DNA from: a virus
Lineage: Duplodnaviria; Heunggongvirae; Uroviricota; Caudoviricetes
IMG/VR virus record: IMGVR_UViG_2582580933_000017
Location: 1 to 4,748 of that record
Strand: one strand, 5' to 3'
DNA: 4,748 bases
Positions within the stretch are counted from its first letter, which is position 1. Each line of letters begins with the position of its first letter. Below the pieces are notes generated by a model. That model did no database searches and had not been told where the DNA came from. It saw only the letters and a list, made by a program, of their open reading frames with translations. Shown here one piece after another: positions 1 to 4,748 of the stretch. The translations under genes were made by a program, and so were the position numbers.

Positions 1-99
1 TTCCGCTTCTTCTGCTGGCAGTACAACGTTGCTACCAGGTCCGTATGTTTCGCGCCACTGCTTGATTGTCAGTAGTCGCTCTTTGGTAATAGTGATCAT
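1..99 (-). CDS. hypothetical protein, N-terminal fragment (gene continues beyond the left edge)
   Basis: Minus-strand ATG at 99..97 overlaps the TGA stop (98..96) of the upstream gene (ATGA). A purine-rich AAGGAA lies about 8 nt upstream. The frame stays open for 33 codons to position 1 (MITITKERLLTIKQWRETYGPGSNVVLPAEEAE...). No family recognised. Confidence 0.45.
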   Translation of the reverse strand, partial: MITITKERLLTIKQWRETYGPGSNVVLPAEEAE

Positions 100-611
100 G
101 CCGCGTTTCCTTCTTTCTTATTAACAATTACACCGTCATATATTTCATTAAGGTGCCCTCTCAACTCCATGCGCCTTAATGCAGATAACATGTAATCGCA
201 TTCAACCTGCTTATTTCCAGTAAATGGCTTATCGTCAGGATTACCCCAACAGCAATTACCCTTGGGCCACCCATGTACTTTCCGTACTCTTCCGTTAACA
301 ACGTGAAGTAATCCCCAGCCAGGTGGTAAATCCTCAACTGAAATAATTCCCGGCTCACTAATAAAGAATCGCCAGTCGCCCATTCCAAGAGATGGATTTT
401 TACGAAAACGCTTTTTTCTATCTGCCAACAAGTCAGCACGAGAACACTTCGCCTCTATCAGGCATGATGCTGAATTTCTGAATCCCATAGCATCTGGCTG
501 TTCTCCGGTACTGGTTACAGCTATAAAGCGGTCATGAAAACAAACCTTGAACCCGTTGCGCTTAAGGAACTTATACGCAATCTGACAGAGTTCGCGGTGT
601 GTTAACGCCAT
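96..611 (-). CDS. PD-(D/E)xK nuclease-fold protein (restriction-endonuclease-like), 171 aa
   Basis: ORF-track frame 96..683, trimmed to the ATG at 611..609, which has an AAGGAGAG Shine-Dalgarno 4 nt upstream and sits 1 nt after the upstream stop (TGATATG). The protein (MALTHRELCQIAYKFLKRNGFKVCFHDRFIAVTSTGEQPDAMGFRNSASCLIEAKCS...) has a helix-then-strands N-terminus and a PD...(E)xK signature (QPD followed 12 residues later by EAK). Fold call is by motif only. Confidence 0.7.
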   Translation of the reverse strand: MALTHRELCQIAYKFLKRNGFKVCFHDRFIAVTSTGEQPDAMGFRNSASCLIEAKCSRADLLADRKKRFRKNPSLGMGDWRFFISEPGIISVEDLPPGWGLLHVVNGRVRKVHGWPKGNCCWGNPDDKPFTGNKQVECDYMLSALRRMELRGHLNEIYDGVIVNKKEGNAA

Positions 612-612
612 A

Positions 613-801
613 TCACTCTCCTTTAGTGCGCAAGTGGTTTTTCCAGCGGTTTTGCGCCGCGCTGGGCTTTTTGCAAAAACCACAATCCATCATCCCGTAA
701 TATTTCATCAACCCCATCCGTCGGTTGCTGAGTCTCACCCACTGCCAGACGCCAGGAGCGTTTCTACGAACTAACAGAATCTTTGCTTTACGGTTTTTCA
801 T
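613..801 (-). CDS. small basic hypothetical protein, 62 aa (MKNRKAK family, copy 1)
   Basis: ORF-track ORF. Its ATG (801..799) overlaps the stop of the upstream paralogue (ATGA). Its C-terminus ...RTKGE is encoded by AAAGGAGAG, which doubles as the Shine-Dalgarno for the next gene. Lys/Arg-rich. Paralogous to 798..974. Confidence 0.55.
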   Translation of the reverse strand: MKNRKAKILLVRRNAPGVWQWVRLSNRRMGLMKYYGMMDCGFCKKPSAAQNRWKNHLRTKGE

Positions 802-802
802 C
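782..802. repeat. 21-bp near-exact direct repeat (copy 1) at the start of the MKNRKAK paralogues; second copy at 955..975
   Basis: TTACGGTTTTTCATC is identical at 788..802 and 961..975, extended by TTTGC(T/C) upstream (1 mismatch in 21). It corresponds to the ATGAAAAACCGTAA (MKNRK) starts of the two tandem paralogues on the minus strand. Confidence 0.75.
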
Positions 803-974
803 TTACAGCGTACCCTTTCTTCCGCCTGTTCTGTGACGCAGTAGGCTTACGCTTTGCGGCAAAAGCCACCTGACCAAATGGATGGAGTACCGCTATCTTA
901 TGGTTGCTAATAACCAGCTCCACCACACGCACAGGTCGCTGTAAAAAAAGTCGTTTTGCCTTACGGTTTTTCAT
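798..974 (-). CDS. small basic hypothetical protein, 58 aa (MKNRKAK family, copy 2)
   Basis: Not in the ORF track (below cutoff); found by manual translation: MKNRKAKRLFLQRPVRVVELVISNHKIAVLHPFGQVAFAAKRKPTASQNRRKKGYAVR. ATG at 974..972 with AGGAGA 8 nt upstream; stop TGA at 800..798. Shares the N-terminal MKNRKAK and the C-terminal KP(T/S)A(S/A)QNR(R/W)K motif with the 613..801 product. The DNA has a matching 15-bp exact repeat at both start sites. Confidence 0.5.
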   Translation of the reverse strand: MKNRKAKRLFLQRPVRVVELVISNHKIAVLHPFGQVAFAAKRKPTASQNRRKKGYAVR

Positions 975-1147
975 CGCTTTGCTCTCCTGCGTCTCTTTGC
1001 TGCTCGTCGTGCCGCTGCAATACCGGTATGGCGGCGCTTTGGTGCTGGGGTGATGTTGTCAGCCATCAGGACCTGTGGCTTTGCAATTAGCGCAGAAGCC
1101 CAAAAACGAGTCGGGTACGGTAACAAGCCGATACATGCCACACGCAT
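971..1147 (-). CDS. small hypothetical protein, 58 aa, with a poly-Arg/Lys C-terminal tail
   Basis: Not in the ORF track; found by manual translation: MRVACIGLLPYPTRFWASALIAKPQVLMADNITPAPKRRHTGIAAARRAAKRRRRAKR. ATG at 1147..1145 with a canonical AAGGAGG Shine-Dalgarno 6 nt upstream, overlapping the upstream TAA (TAATG). Stop TGA at 973..971 overlaps the next ATG (ATGA). It fills what would otherwise look like a 170-bp intergenic gap. An internal in-frame ATG at 1066 is an alternative start. Confidence 0.45.
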   Translation of the reverse strand: MRVACIGLLPYPTRFWASALIAKPQVLMADNITPAPKRRHTGIAAARRAAKRRRRAKR

Positions 1148-1635
1148 TACTCACCTCCTTTGATGCGAATGCCTGTTGCAATGCTGTTTATGATGCTGTC
1201 AGTGCATGGGGTAGAAAGCTGGGCATCTCCAGCAATTTTCATGACATCAACATCTGCATATCGAATACCGAGGTGTATCAGACCGGCTATACCTGACTTA
1301 AGCCGAGCATTTTCCATAAACAGATCCTTTGCCCGCTGTTTTTCTGCCTCAAGCTCAACGCGCAACTTCCCTACCGTTAGCGCAATATCCTCGTTCTCCT
1401 GATCGCGGGATTTGATGTATTGCTGGTTTCTTTCCCGTTCATCCAGTAGTGCCAGCACGGTTTCTGGTCCGGCCAGAAATTTGAAGGCGTTGAGCGCATC
1501 AATATCCACACCGTAATCTTTAAGTTCCTGTTCACTTAACAAATCATCATCAGCTGGCAACATTAACAGGCGTTCCATTGCTGGAATTGCACGTTCCGCC
1601 GCCTCACGCAGTGCCTGATAGTCAATCTTGCTCAC
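1147..1635 (-). CDS. coiled-coil phage protein, resembles the Ead/Ea22-like family (from memory, unverified)
   Basis: ORF-track ORF of 162 aa. GTG start at 1635..1633 preceded by AAGGAGGCAACCA, overlapping the upstream stop (GTGA). N-terminus SKIDYQALREAAERA and a charged coiled-coil-like middle (ERERNQQYIKSRDQENEDIALTVGKLRVELEAEKQRAKDL). C-terminus ...IKGGE is encoded by AAAGGAGGTGAG, which gives the Shine-Dalgarno for the next gene. Confidence 0.65.
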   Translation of the reverse strand: MSKIDYQALREAAERAIPAMERLLMLPADDDLLSEQELKDYGVDIDALNAFKFLAGPETVLALLDERERNQQYIKSRDQENEDIALTVGKLRVELEAEKQRAKDLFMENARLKSGIAGLIHLGIRYADVDVMKIAGDAQLSTPCTDSIINSIATGIRIKGGE

Positions 1636-1648
1636 TGGTTGCCTCCTT
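1631..1648. repeat. 18-bp exact direct repeat (copy 1) at a gene junction; second copy at 1951..1968
   Basis: CTCACTGGTTGCCTCCTT occurs at 1631..1648 and 1951..1968, with imperfect similarity for about 19 more bp (13 of 19 match). On the minus strand each copy encodes the end of one gene (GGNQ stop), an AAGGAGG Shine-Dalgarno and the GTG start of the next. Confidence 0.8.
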
Positions 1649-1955
1649 TTCGAAGCTGGGCGGCGATATCTTCGAGAACGCCATCAGAGAATGAGCGGTC
1701 AAAATCGCCTTCCGGCGCATTAGCCATAAACTCAGTAGAGGTAAGAATCATCCGGGCAATATCCGCGGCGTTCTTCGCGGTATCATCAATAAAACCAGCT
1801 TCCCAGGCAGCCAGCATTCTGTTCGCCACAAAATAAGCGCCTTCCTTGCGTGCTTCAGTCTTCACTTCAGCTAGAAAAGCATCGGTATGGCAATGGAATG
1901 AGGCGTTATTACCCACAATTTCACGCAAGCACATCATGTAAAAACGGTTACTCAC
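1632..1955 (-). CDS. hypothetical protein, 107 aa
   Basis: ORF-track frame 1632..1991, trimmed to the GTG at 1955..1953, which has the same AAGGAGGCAACCAGTGAG context as the next gene and overlaps the upstream stop (GTGA). The ATG at 1991 has only a poorly spaced GGGAG and would overlap the upstream gene by about 40 nt. C-terminus ...IAAQLRKGGNQ is shared with the 1952..2191 product. Confidence 0.6.
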   Translation of the reverse strand: MSNRFYMMCLREIVGNNASFHCHTDAFLAEVKTEARKEGAYFVANRMLAAWEAGFIDDTAKNAADIARMILTSTEFMANAPEGDFDRSFSDGVLEDIAAQLRKGGNQ

Positions 1956-1968
1956 TGGTTGCCTCCTT
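1951..1968. repeat. 18-bp exact direct repeat (copy 2) at a gene junction
   Basis: Same sequence as 1631..1648; see that entry. Confidence 0.8.
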
Positions 1969-2191
1969 GGCGGAGTTGCGCTGCGATGCATGAAAAAAAA
2001 GACTCCCGAGTGTGACAGTTAAGAGCTGGTGCGAACGCCGCGTTAAGAACGGCGGCATCACAGCCGTCATCAATATAGAGCGCAATTTTTTTCTCCAGGC
2101 GCGCTTTGGCTTCCTGCAACTGCATACCCCGGCACGCACGCGGGATATAATCAGCAATTTGAGCGATAGCTTTTTCGTTCTGTTTAAACAT
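1952..2191 (-). CDS. hypothetical protein, 79 aa
   Basis: ORF-track ORF. ATG at 2191..2189 with GAGGTG 4 nt upstream, overlapping the end of the upstream gene by 8 nt. C-terminus ...IAAQLRQGGNQ; its last codons CAAGGAGGCAACCAGTGA carry the Shine-Dalgarno and GTG start of the next gene. Confidence 0.55.
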   Translation of the reverse strand: MFKQNEKAIAQIADYIPRACRGMQLQEAKARLEKKIALYIDDGCDAAVLNAAFAPALNCHTRESFFSCIAAQLRQGGNQ

Positions 2192-2387
2192 GCTTCACCT
2201 CGATAGGCTTGATGGTGTCTAACAGCAGTCGGCGGCGCGTATTTTCTGCAAAATGGCGGCGTCCAGTTTCTTTGTGGTAAAACTCGTTTTTGCCAACGAC
2301 CCACATCCGCTCTGTTTGGTGCAGTTTTTTTACCTTCGGGCCATCTTTGGTGATCACGGTACCGGTATGGGTTTTTACGATTGTCAT
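2184..2387 (-). CDS. hypothetical protein, 67 aa
   Basis: ORF-track ORF. ATG at 2387..2385 overlaps the TGA of the PAPS-reductase-like gene (ATGA), with GAAGAGG upstream. Basic protein (MTIVKTHTGTVITKDGPKVKKLHQTERMWVVGKNEFYHKETGRRHF...). No family recognised. Confidence 0.55.
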   Translation of the reverse strand: MTIVKTHTGTVITKDGPKVKKLHQTERMWVVGKNEFYHKETGRRHFAENTRRRLLLDTIKPIEVKHV

Positions 2388-3262
2388 TCCACTACCTCTT
2401 CGAATTTCAACTCCAATTGGTCACCCCAGATTTCACATGATTCGGAACACGAACCAGTATCAAACCGCTTGGCCAGCACCATCGCCTGATACAAATTTCT
2501 GTAGTCACTGTCGGCATACATTCTGGCAATCCCGTCAAGCGTCAGGTGGCCACGGTACATAACGTCTTTACCTGTTCTGCGATGACCATCCCTGACGTGT
2601 TTGCCTGTAACCAGTTCATTAAAAACCCGCATCAGACCTGGTTCGTCTTTACATGCAAGCCCCAGCTTTTGCGTTGACTTTTTGATGCAAAAAACACAGT
2701 TCCCGAGGTGCTCCGGGATTTGCAAATCAAAAGGTTGTTTTCGCCACCACCGGATAACATCCGACTTATCAAAATCTGACAGTTCGGCAAGATACCGGAC
2801 GCCCGGTTTCGGTTTCAGCCTACGGGGTTCGTCCGCACGAATACCCAGCCATGTGATGTAATTCCCTCGCCCAAAATGGTCATCGCAATATTTCGTGAAA
2901 GGGGTGAGTTTTAGCCTGTCAGTACAGAACGCGCCGCCGATGTATGGCGTACCGTACTTTTTAACCATGTCCATAAACGGTTTAAGCACCGGCATTCGCG
3001 TCTGAATATCCTTTGGTTCCCATTCCGTATAACCATTTGGCTGCCCAATTTCTGGATTTATATCGACCTGCAACACCGTTAGCGGTACGTTCCAGAACTT
3101 CACAACCTCACGAATAAAGCGATACGTCAGAGGATGTTCACAGCCGGTATCCATAAAAATGAAATGGACGCTAGCGCCAGCTTTTCGCTGTGCTTCCATC
3201 AGATGAACGAGATAAGCCGATGTTCGTCCACCTGAAAAGCTGACGACTTGATGCATACTCAC
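2384..3262 (-). CDS. phosphoadenosine phosphosulfate (PAPS) reductase family protein, PP-loop ATP pyrophosphatase fold (CysH/DndC-like)
   Basis: ORF-track ORF of 292 aa. N-terminal PP-loop VVSFSGGRTSAY (SGGxxS). The stretch FMDTGCEHPLTYRFIREV matches the CysH-family DTG...ETYRFI region. C-terminal cysteines (GNCVFC and GSCSESC) could bind a metal or Fe-S cluster. Start is GTG at 3262 (AGGA 7 nt upstream) or ATG at 3256; both in frame. Confidence 0.85.
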   Translation of the reverse strand: MSMHQVVSFSGGRTSAYLVHLMEAQRKAGASVHFIFMDTGCEHPLTYRFIREVVKFWNVPLTVLQVDINPEIGQPNGYTEWEPKDIQTRMPVLKPFMDMVKKYGTPYIGGAFCTDRLKLTPFTKYCDDHFGRGNYITWLGIRADEPRRLKPKPGVRYLAELSDFDKSDVIRWWRKQPFDLQIPEHLGNCVFCIKKSTQKLGLACKDEPGLMRVFNELVTGKHVRDGHRRTGKDVMYRGHLTLDGIARMYADSDYRNLYQAMVLAKRFDTGSCSESCEIWGDQLELKFEEVVE

Positions 3263-3265
3263 GGT

Positions 3266-3844
3266 TTATTCCTGAATGCGCTTAAACTCGATTACCCATA
3301 CCAACGGGTTAGATAGCCAGTTATCCTGCCCGTAAATACTGCGCCAGATATCACCAAAACCAACGCGATAAACAGCTTCAGATGGCGTAATCTTGTACGT
3401 CGCCGGAGTTGCGCCTTCTGCTTTAGCATCTGCCTCGCTCATGTCATGCAGCCGTTCCACACGCACGTCGGTAATTTCCAGAAGAATGCGCGATGCCCAG
3501 CGCGGCATGTGAATTGATGGCGTCCACTTTTCTGATACTGGTTTATTACAAACCTCGACCGGAACCCGGTGCGTTTGTTCTGTCCAGGAGTTACGCACGC
3601 TTGCGCGATAAACCAGCGTTGCGACGTCCGTCGCTTTGCCATGTACCCGGTAGGTTTCGCGAACCCAAATACGATCGCCCGGTTGACCATATGGACAATG
3701 CTTGGCAAGCAACTCTGCGGCCACTGCCCGTCCATAGAATTTTTCTTCAACAATCCTGCGAGTCTGTGTTTTATTCCCGCCAAGAATTGCCCGGACCATC
3801 TCATCGTTAAAAATCATGCCGCGCTCTTTCACTTCGCCTTTCAT
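3266..3844 (-). CDS. ASCH-domain protein (PUA-like fold), YqfB-like ends with a large internal insertion
   Basis: ORF-track ORF of 192 aa. N-terminal ILGGNKTQTRR matches the ASCH GxKxxExR-type motif (recalled E. coli YqfB: ILAGRKTITIRD). C-terminal VWVIEFKRI matches the YqfB end FYVIEFKCL. ATG at 3844 has an AAGGGGGA Shine-Dalgarno; an alternative in-frame start is the ATG at 3817 (MIFNDEM...), where the ASCH alignment begins. Confidence 0.75.
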   Translation of the reverse strand: MKGEVKERGMIFNDEMVRAILGGNKTQTRRIVEEKFYGRAVAAELLAKHCPYGQPGDRIWVRETYRVHGKATDVATLVYRASVRNSWTEQTHRVPVEVCNKPVSEKWTPSIHMPRWASRILLEITDVRVERLHDMSEADAKAEGATPATYKITPSEAVYRVGFGDIWRSIYGQDNWLSNPLVWVIEFKRIQE

Positions 3845-3853
3845 ACATCCCCC

Positions 3854-3940
3854 TTACCCATGTGCGACGATGCCGCCAAAAGTGATAGAGAACAGCCAGA
3901 AATAGATCGCGGCCATAATGATTTTGAATGCCGTGTTCAT
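3854..3940 (-). CDS. small hydrophobic (single predicted transmembrane helix) peptide, 28 aa
   Basis: Not in the ORF track; found by manual translation: MNTAFKIIMAAIYFWLFSITFGGIVAHG. ATG at 3940..3938 with AGGAG 8 nt upstream (3953..3949). Stop TAA at 3856..3854; its last codons plus GGGGGA form the Shine-Dalgarno of the ASCH gene 9 nt downstream. Confidence 0.45.
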   Translation of the reverse strand: MNTAFKIIMAAIYFWLFSITFGGIVAHG

Positions 3941-3967
3941 ATTTTCAGCTCCTGTGATTGATTGGAT

Positions 3968-3999
3968 ACATGCCGCGCCTTGCGGCATGTTTTAATTTT
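3968..3999 (+). terminator. plus-strand-oriented intrinsic-terminator-like hairpin (also a perfect palindrome that could be an operator)
   Basis: Perfect 9-bp inverted repeat ACATGCCGC (3968..3976) / GCGGCATGT (3982..3990) with loop GCCTT, followed on the plus strand by TTTAATTTTC. No T-tract follows it on the minus strand. It lies in the gap between the HAD gene stop (4039) and the small-peptide Shine-Dalgarno (3953). Confidence 0.4.
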
Positions 4000-4023
4000 C
4001 ACTTTCTCTGTTTTAAAAATCAA
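3995..4023 (-). promoter_or_regulatory. candidate sigma70-type promoter for the minus-strand genes downstream
   Basis: On the minus strand: TTGATT (4023..4018), a 17-nt AT-rich spacer, then GAAAAT (4000..3995). This would start transcription at or inside the palindrome at 3968..3990. Weak consensus match (4/6 and 4/6); not verified. Confidence 0.25.
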
Positions 4024-4038
4024 GATTTATTAGAGCAA

Positions 4039-4545
4039 TTATTGTTGATGAAGAAGTGCATTTTCATATTCCCTGACCATTAACGTAAGTACGCCGTGAC
4101 TCCTGAAAACACGCGCCACTTCAATCTTATCTTCCAGCGCGAACGCAATTTTACTTAGACCAATTTTCTTCAGGAGATCAATCTTTGCAGGGCCGTCATT
4201 TCTGTCATCGGTGGCAGGACGCATAGATAGCAAAGGCTCAGCCCCATTTGTTACGTGCTTACGCAGCCAGGCTCGTGTTTTATCCCTTGCGATCTCACAG
4301 CGCCCGGTTACAAACCAGACCGTGTAAACGTTAAATAACTGGCGCACCATATCAATAACCGGAGTGATGGGAGTATCGGTGTCACAGGCGAGATTAAACT
4401 CGTTCCAGTCCTTTGTTAATGCACCTTTACCTGGTGGCGGAAGCAAATGCAGTCTGTCTTCAGTTGCCTCTGATATTGTTCCATCAATATCGACTATGAC
4501 GATATACGGACGTTCCTGGTGTGCGTGTTTATTGAAAATACTCAA
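4039..4545 (-). CDS. HAD-superfamily phosphatase (nucleotidase or polynucleotide 3'-phosphatase-like)
   Basis: ORF-track ORF of 168 aa. HAD motif I IVIVDIDGT (DxDGT) near the N-terminus and a motif II-like VWFVTGR. Start is TTG at 4545..4543 with a GAGGAGGG Shine-Dalgarno 3-4 nt upstream; there is no in-frame ATG further upstream. Confidence 0.75.
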   Translation of the reverse strand: MSIFNKHAHQERPYIVIVDIDGTISEATEDRLHLLPPPGKGALTKDWNEFNLACDTDTPITPVIDMVRQLFNVYTVWFVTGRCEIARDKTRAWLRKHVTNGAEPLLSMRPATDDRNDGPAKIDLLKKIGLSKIAFALEDKIEVARVFRSHGVLTLMVREYENALLHQQ

Positions 4546-4563
4546 ATGCCCTCCTCATTGGAC

Positions 4564-4598
4564 GAAAAAAATGCTGGTGGGCGCACTCCACCAGCATT
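4564..4598 (-). terminator. rho-independent terminator, minus-strand orientation
   Basis: Perfect 11-bp inverted repeat AATGCTGGTGG (4570..4580) / CCACCAGCATT (4588..4598) with a 7-nt loop. On the minus strand it is followed by a run of 7 T (plus-strand A-run 4564..4570). It lies between the stop of the upstream partial gene (4618) and the HAD Shine-Dalgarno (4556..4549). Confidence 0.65.
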
Positions 4599-4617
4599 AA
4601 AAGTGACACTGTAACTA

Positions 4618-4748
4618 TCAGCGGACGTAAATAGTGCCGCCGTTCTCTTTTTCCCATGCATCGCTACGTGCATAGCAAACATCGAGAAGTCTTCTTGCCG
4701 CTGTTTCCTCTAAACCCAATTCGACAACCAACTGCTCATGACGGCGGG
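4618..4748 (-). CDS. hypothetical protein, C-terminal fragment (gene begins beyond the right edge)
   Basis: Minus-strand frame open from the window edge for 42 codons (...RRHEQLVVELGLEETAARRLLDVCYARSDAWEKENGGTIYVR) to TGA at 4620..4618, just upstream of the terminator. No family recognised. Confidence 0.45.
   Translation of the reverse strand, partial: RRHEQLVVELGLEETAARRLLDVCYARSDAWEKENGGTIYVR

Follow-up and report, generated by a model that had tools for sequence, protein, structure and literature searches.

All genes in the window, as we call the whole 4,748-nt stretch of viral DNA analyzed here, are encoded on the minus strand. The region from 3900 to 4748 shares 95-98.5% identity with the phages P1, P7, SJ46, and RCS47, and up to 99.9% with about a thousand records of E. 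coli, nearly all of them plasmids. A preliminary description of this DNA had placed it in a lambdoid setting. This setting does not hold, since P1, P7, and P1-like plasmids match the window with 95-99.9% identity, which assigns the window, at the level of sequence comparison, to a P1-type phage-plasmid and not to a lambdoid prophage. The window departs from P1 downstream of about position 3753, and the features annotated in the P1 record were placed on it by coordinates (window position equals the coordinate of the P1-record segment minus 1101).

The intergenic region studied here lies between the genes pmgS and pap. The 3' end of pmgS (shtB in P7) is represented in the window by its last 42 codons (4621..4748, minus strand), which precede a TGA stop codon at 4620..4618 and are 96-99.9% identical to pmgS of P1, P7, and P1-like plasmids. 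The next gene, pap (4039..4545, minus strand), starts with a TTG codon at 4545..4543 and encodes a HAD phosphatase of 168 amino acids, of the PNKP phosphatase-domain type and with a DIDGT motif; it is 507 nt long, and pmgS 1263 nt. This identification comes from the open reading frame, from Pfam (PF25109 HAD_PNKP, E = 4.5e-12), and from the annotation of the two phages: the P1 record lists pap as 'putative P1 acid phosphatase', and P7 likewise has pap. The gene has been described as encoding a non-essential 3'-phosphatase of the PNKP type (PMC10695390). Its Shine-Dalgarno sequence, GAGGAGGG, was read on the minus strand at 4549..4556, with its first nucleotide at 4556 as previously described, and is separated from the start codon by CAT. 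In the P1 record, the order of the elements is PpmgR with the operators Op86a/b, pmgR, pmgS, a 72-bp gap, pap, OpmgT, the promoters P1pmgT/P2pmgT, and pmgT. The note attached to the C1 operators Op86a/b reads 'controls expression of pmgR and pmgS', and the corresponding units in the annotation of P7 are the sht operon (shtA-shtB), pap, and Op(hea).

The stop codon of pap overlaps an operator of the C1 repressor, ATTGCTCTAATAAATCT (4023..4039, minus strand), which is OpmgT (formerly Op88) in the P1 annotation, in agreement with Op(hea) in P7. The annotators of the P1 GenBank record predicted two sigma-70 promoters at this place, also on the minus strand: P2pmgT, with a -35 box at 4038..4033 and a -10 box at 4015..4010, and P1pmgT, with a -35 box at 4023..4018 and a -10 box at 4000..3995. 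The first gene past Op88 is a small hydrophobic open reading frame of 28 amino acids, MNTAFKIIMAAIYFWLFSITFGGIVAHG (3854..3940, minus strand), with a Shine-Dalgarno sequence CAGGAG at 3953..3948. It is annotated as 'membrane protein' in phage SJ46 and left unannotated in many records, and similar peptides also follow the operator in phage JK004 and in a Salmonella plasmid, pCFSAN058588, two relatives discussed below. Between the Op88 promoter region and this open reading frame, there is a second hairpin of 10 pairs (3968..3990), which has a T-rich tail only on the plus (antisense) strand. In JK004 (GGCCGC...GCGGCC) and in pCFSAN058588 (AGGCCAC...GTGGCCT), stems of another sequence occupy this position, which makes the second hairpin seem conserved in structure; it may stabilize the 5' end of the mRNA of the Op88 operon or stop antisense transcription. 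The cargo region past pap is known as variable region 8 of P1-like phage-plasmids (PMC9603915). In the window (1..3750), it includes open reading frames of 192 and 195 amino acids, neither of which has a Pfam match, a 292-amino-acid protein with a PAPS-reductase domain, an Ead/Ea22-like protein, and several small open reading frames; parts of it match upf genes of P7 and the plasmid pZ1323CEC0010-3. These cargo genes were probably the source of the lambdoid reading.

Our scan of the window revealed a terminator-like site on the minus strand, in the gap between pmgS and pap: AATGCTGGTGG-AGTGCGC-CCACCAGCATT at 4598..4570, with the tail TTTTTCGTCC. The stem consists of a 5' arm (4598..4588) and a 3' arm (4580..4570) that form 11 perfect pairs, 6 of them G-C, around a loop of 7 nt (4587..4581). 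It begins 19 nt 3' of the TGA of pmgS, which is on the same strand. The U tract corresponds to 7 T (4571..4565, minus strand), two of which belong to the stem, and an 8-nt spacer, CGTCCAAT, leads from the T run to the Shine-Dalgarno sequence of pap. The perfect 11-bp stem and the seven T were correctly described beforehand, the exception being the end of the tract, which had been put at 4564, a C, and is actually at 4565. The hairpin, the T run, the spacer, and the Shine-Dalgarno sequence match those of phage P1 base for base.

The case for a terminator comes from the scan, from folding, from shuffled sequences, and from conservation. The hairpin is the longest-stemmed terminator-like site within the window and, in P1, the sole strong one on the gene strand over the 7.4 kb that run from pmgL to pmgV. 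Among 300 shuffles that preserved dinucleotides and covered both strands of the whole window, one had a perfect stem of 11 bp or more next to a T-rich tail. The isolated hairpin has a folding energy of -17.6 kcal/mol, its pair probabilities are 0.95-1.0 when 186 nt of upstream mRNA are included (0.72 for the outermost pair), and the z-score of the surrounding 86-nt region is -2.2. What follows the stem on the plus strand is A-rich, hence the site works in one direction only. The site thus combines several characteristics of Rho-independent terminators, namely a G+C-rich stem, a short loop, an adjoining U run, a position just past a stop codon, and, with modest evidence from the two deep lineages that carry the site, a structure that is kept while the sequence changes. 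Together, the hairpin and the T run have the appearance of a true intrinsic terminator.

To describe its conservation, we gathered about 220 P1-like loci from viral contigs, metagenome contigs, and plasmids, which correspond to 24 distinct versions of the pmgS-pap gap and one diverged version (JK004). Within the P1 group, 4 of the 7 loop positions are polymorphic, on top of two insertion variants, against 3 of the 22 stem positions (one-sided Fisher test, p about 0.04). Two of these stem positions are internal, and both show a C-to-U change that preserves G-U pairing; at the third, the outermost A is replaced either by G, still pairing, or by T. The T run of the P1-group relatives has 6 to 8 T. 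The diverged version is found in the Cronobacter phage JK004 and in one metagenome contig, where Pap and PmgS are, respectively, 73% and 70% identical to those of the window. At the same place, this lineage has the hairpin GCTGATGGG-TTCGCG-CCCATCGGC, then T8, then CGCCCAAAAGGAGGG-ATTT-TTG, and it shares with the window the layout GGAGGG-3/4 nt-TTG. Relative to the P1 stem, that of JK004 has one compensatory pair (G-C to A-U), one change from U-A to U-G, and one extra G-C pair. Over the 25 variants, the stem shows one compensatory pair and, on one side only, four changes to wobble pairing, and 98.9% of the stem cells of the alignment that includes JK004 are paired, against 31-77% in slid controls. 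This excess of pairing and the compensatory pair of JK004 support, across two deep lineages, a conserved RNA structure. The covariation comes from two deep lineages because the searches for relatives yielded few diverged loci: the scan of GTDB species genomes gave only 2 loci, near-identical, the viral and metagenome scans one JK004-like contig and otherwise almost exclusively members of the P1 group, and the plasmid searches, for which JK004 served as the query, nothing beyond the P1 group, at 70-75% identity.

A third lineage is represented by the Salmonella plasmid pCFSAN058588 (NZ_CP077703.1, 3763..3860), whose PmgS is 69% identical and which has neither pap nor the canonical hairpin. There, about 45 nt, weakly structured and including T6, separate the flank GTTACAGTGTCAC from an Op88-like operator, which is thus within about 60 nt of pmgS. 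Since pap and the canonical hairpin are both absent from this plasmid, the hairpin may go with pap and not with pmgS, which suggests that the two behave as one insertion or deletion unit. Their joint presence or absence across the three lineages is a hint that fits a terminator whose job would include throttling pap. The flank itself, 13 nt just past the stop codon of pmgS (4603..4615, minus strand), emerged from the comparison of P1, JK004, and pCFSAN058588: it is kept as GTTACnnTGTCAC in the three lineages, with diverged intergenic sequence around it. It contains half-matches, in both orientations, to the -22 box of P1 late promoters and no usable -10 box. In distant homologues of PmgS, the intergenic region is too diverged to be aligned. 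A Pantoea plasmid has a weak hairpin and U4 past its pmgS homologue, and we found no hairpin with a U run past the homologues of the Acinetobacter and E. coli pPSS-10_3 plasmids.

A scan for the sigma-70 consensus found no site near the pmgS-pap gap, and a relaxed scan from 4625 to 4546 found nothing usable. The annotators of the P1 record predicted many promoters, none of them for pap. The view that the terminator leaves no room for a promoter before the HAD gene, which would be reached only by read-through, is therefore borne out in that none is recognizable between the hairpin and pap, and pap must accordingly be transcribed through the hairpin. However, this dependence had been extended to all genes as far as 3995..4023, and it only applies to pap, with its 507 nt, because a predicted promoter under the control of a C1 operator starts right past this gene; for the longer block, Op88 and the predicted promoters are available.

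Published expression data inform on how much transcription passes the hairpin. Two tables of RNA-seq from P1vir infections give, for each gene, the log fold change (logFC) relative to a sample without phage. In the wild type of the first (PMC8201110, Table S1), the values at 10 and 30 min are, respectively, 7.05 and 11.66 for pmgQ, 9.02 and 10.81 for pmgR, 9.99 and 11.70 for pmgS, 8.45 and 11.23 for pap, and 9.72 and 11.66 for pmgT. In the wild type of the second (bioRxiv 10.64898/2025.12.28.696737, Table S1), the values at 10 and 20 min are 7.96 and 9.36 for pmgR, 8.21 and 10.04 for pmgS, 5.52 and 8.08 for pap, and 8.93 and 10.84 for pmgT. In these gene-level fold changes, pap at 10 min is 1.3-2.7 log2 below pmgS, and it is below both of its neighbors, pmgS and pmgT, in both tables. 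Since pap is also higher than the pmgN-pmgQ operon that lies upstream, PpmgR is the best explanation for its RNA. The hfq mutant shows an increase for pap and pmgS and a decrease for pmgR and pmgT; pap thus follows pmgS and not the downstream promoter. Typical late genes of P1 have values of 3-5 at 10 min (PMC8201110), and pap counts as an early gene, being significantly induced at that time along with the early genes under C1 control. Per base, the RNA of pap at 10 min is roughly 15% to 85% of that of pmgS, a bracket that depends on whether the values scale with gene length. We only give a bracket because the no-phage baseline and the uncertain dependence on gene length make it unsafe to turn fold changes into a read-through fraction. 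At its 85% end, the leakage would be unexpectedly high for U7 behind an 11-bp stem, which could mean an unrecognized promoter or active read-through.

These observations are best read as most pmgR-pmgS transcripts ending at the hairpin and a fraction running on into pap. More precisely, we give a probability of about 0.75 to a constitutive Rho-independent terminator that closes the early pmgR-pmgS operon, feeds pap by partial read-through, and leaves the next genes to be restarted at Op88. RNA polymerase starting at PpmgR, under the control of the C1 repressor, would transcribe pmgR-pmgS (shtA-shtB in P7) and then meet the hairpin and the U tract. Part of the transcripts would be released at about 4565-4568, ending in a stable and protective 3' hairpin, and the remaining ones would cross the 8-nt spacer into pap. 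With a strong Shine-Dalgarno sequence, a TTG start, and no promoter, pap would be expressed at a reduced level on the schedule of pmgR-pmgS, i.e., early and upon derepression from C1. Directly past pap, transcription of the next genes would be restarted independently at the C1-controlled Op88 promoter region. We infer that termination is partial, that the mRNA of pap has its source in read-through from PpmgR, and that pap is a low-level early gene without a control of its own. The preliminary description had mentioned a partial termination setting the expression ratio as an alternative to N- or Q-type antitermination, and we favor this alternative, given that pap is early and below pmgS in the published tables.

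Two other readings concern the way in which pap is transcribed. One is that pap has a promoter overlapping the hairpin, with a start inside or past the 5' arm, in which case the terminator would not act on its transcripts. The dip of the RNA-seq values at pap is modest, and the best -10-like hexamer of the region, TTTAAT (4601..4596), has upstream of it AGTTAC (4616..4611), which shares 6/9 with the -22 box AAGT(G/T)ACTT of P1 late promoters. Yet position 2 of this hexamer is not the invariant A, its -35 box would match 2/6 at best, it has no TG extension, and the JK004 sequence, CACTCACTTGCT, does not preserve it; the annotators of P1 placed no promoter at the hairpin either. A model of P1 late promoters, built from 7 annotated ones taken from the P1 record, gives a similar answer, as 6 of the 7 read AAGT(G/T)ACTT followed after exactly 4 nt by a TAnnnT-like -10 box (the gap of LPhot is 9 nt), and a spacing of 4 nt yields ACTTTT here. 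An Lpa-dependent late promoter over the hairpin was rejected on this basis, its best box being TAGTTACAG with 6/9, as were the half-matches AGTTAC and GTCACTT, which have the wrong spacing and -10 box and are not conserved in JK004. Overall, we see only a very slim chance that pap is transcribed from such a promoter. The other reading is a regulated read-through, where the terminator would be efficient early and overridden later by processive antitermination, through a phage- or host-dependent change of the RNA polymerase, such that pap would be temporally gated. The difference in logFC between pap and pmgS does rise from the early to the later time point in the four published series (+1.07 in the wild type and +1.48 in dksA, +0.72 in the wild type and +0.14 in hfq), i.e., the gap narrows by 0.14 to 1.48 log2, and this rise is mostly larger than the change of pmgT relative to pmgS. 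A purely constitutive terminator does not predict the narrowing, which a higher read-through at later times could explain. At 30 min, however, the logFC values of nearly all P1 genes come together at 11-12, for which reason we count this as weak: saturation or late DNA carry-over could shrink the gap, and the time trend gives antitermination faint support. The genome is P1-like and not lambdoid, the annotation of P1 lists no antiterminator gene in about 58 of 94.8 kb, and pap is strongly induced by 10 min, when the Lpa-dependent late genes are low. The upstream search for nut-like elements that had been suggested, which we made in a plasmid 99.9% identical to window 1883-4748, found neither boxA-like (YGCTCTT(T)A, GCTCTTT, GCTCTTA) nor boxB-like elements (GNRNA loop on a stem of 5 bp) over the 5.5 kb of gene strand that precede the hairpin, and Rfam gave no match in the window. 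On the identity of the genome and the lack of boxA/boxB in these 5.5 kb, we rejected the lambdoid N/Q framework, and the induction of pap at 10 min shows no sign of the late gating that it would entail. A conditional terminator of the attenuator or riboswitch type is ruled out by the lack of a Rfam match and of an alternative fold: no competing antiterminator structure was found within 150 nt upstream, the pair probability of the terminator being about 1. With the 5' arm 19 nt beyond 4620..4618, a ribosome that halts there should fall short of it. A regulated read-through appears improbable next to a constitutive and partially efficient terminator.

Another question is whether the inverted repeat is kept for what it does as RNA or as DNA. 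The Chi octamer, GCTGGTGG, has an exact match within the 5' arm (4588..4595, minus strand) and another in the complement of the 3' arm (4573..4580, plus strand). These are the only two octamers in the window, where 0.16 are expected. The P1 pieces that we examined have 36 Chi octamers in 57.8 kb, versus about 1.4 expected from base composition (more than 20-fold over-representation), and three convergent pairs within 120 nt, versus about 0.66 expected. In P1-like contigs, another short inverted Chi pair is located about 6 kb upstream, in gene 25 by coordinates. The repeat could then be kept mainly as a two-way Chi site that protects or recombines linear P1 DNA upon entry of RecBCD from either side, with terminator activity being secondary. 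A pair without T run, GCTGGTGGAGCG...CGCCCACCAGC, in the distant P1-like E. coli plasmid NZ_AP027688.1 (3750..3821) goes in the same direction; it has a spacer of 56 nt, lies about 70-100 nt past a pmgS homologue (protein about 20% identical), and resembles the P1 arms with an insert in the loop. In contrast, JK004 keeps the hairpin, the T run, and their position with arms, GCTGATGG/CCATCGGC, that have lost both Chi octamers and retained the pairing, hence the structure, and not Chi, is the conserved feature. The single-arm losses of Chi within the P1 group are also changes that keep wobble pairing, and a role as DNA leaves unexplained both the T run and the placement right past a stop codon. 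We consider it very improbable that the repeat is mainly a DNA element. A combination of the two roles, in which the stem would be deliberately built of an inverted Chi pair and a single 29-bp element would both end the pmgR-pmgS transcript and serve RecBCD, on linear P1 DNA, as a Chi signal that is independent of orientation, seems to us possible, if rather doubtful. Chi in a terminator stem bears on how P1 became so Chi-rich. We did not retain the idea of a general class of Chi-terminators, since a collection-wide scan for GCTGGTGG-N3-9-CCACCAGC matched mostly unrelated coding sequence of G+C-rich phages.

A constitutive terminator with partial read-through, our preferred reading, fixes the end of the pmgR-pmgS unit, which beyond annotation matters little, and explains the presence of the promoterless pap among the early transcripts. 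For the engineering of P1 phagemids, it means that the cargo slot past pap is insulated upstream by a terminator and restarted by a predicted C1-controlled promoter.

The site is of an already known kind: its sequence is that of phage P1 and the element is a textbook one. Lobocka et al. reportedly mapped in 2004 the Rho-independent terminators at the ends of P1 operons. The present site resembles these in being the same sequence between pmgS and pap, with a canonical stem, a short loop, and a U tract past the stop codon. A later work redraws these features, and the legend of its Fig. 2 (PMC8201110) also refers to the mapping of the operons and Rho-independent terminators of P1. In the part of the P1 GenBank record that we inspected, roughly 58 kb, no terminator is annotated. 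Among systems of other replicons, the phage lambda terminators tL/tR, overridden by N (nut) or Q (qut), are similar in that a terminator lies inside an early repressor-controlled unit with genes behind it. The P1-type site differs from them by its non-lambdoid genome, by the lack of boxA/boxB upstream and of an annotated antiterminator gene in the parts of P1 that we inspected, and by having pap on by 10 min. A closer parallel in terms of outcome is given by internal partial terminators that set gene ratios in E. coli, such as the rplL-rpoB attenuator and the T1 terminator of rpsU-dnaG. Here as there, an intrinsic terminator lies between co-oriented genes and a promoterless downstream gene is fed by read-through; however, the termination efficiencies of these two were measured, whereas read-through at the P1-type site is bracketed from fold-change tables at roughly 15-85%. 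Finally, the uptake sequences of Neisseria (DUS) and Haemophilus (USS) form inverted repeats that double as transcription terminators. As in the stem described here, a short DNA signal enriched in the genome occurs as an inverted pair that makes a terminator. The signal of the P1-type site is Chi instead, and while JK004 keeps the pairing without Chi, the same 29 bp may have come to serve both uses in the P1 lineage.
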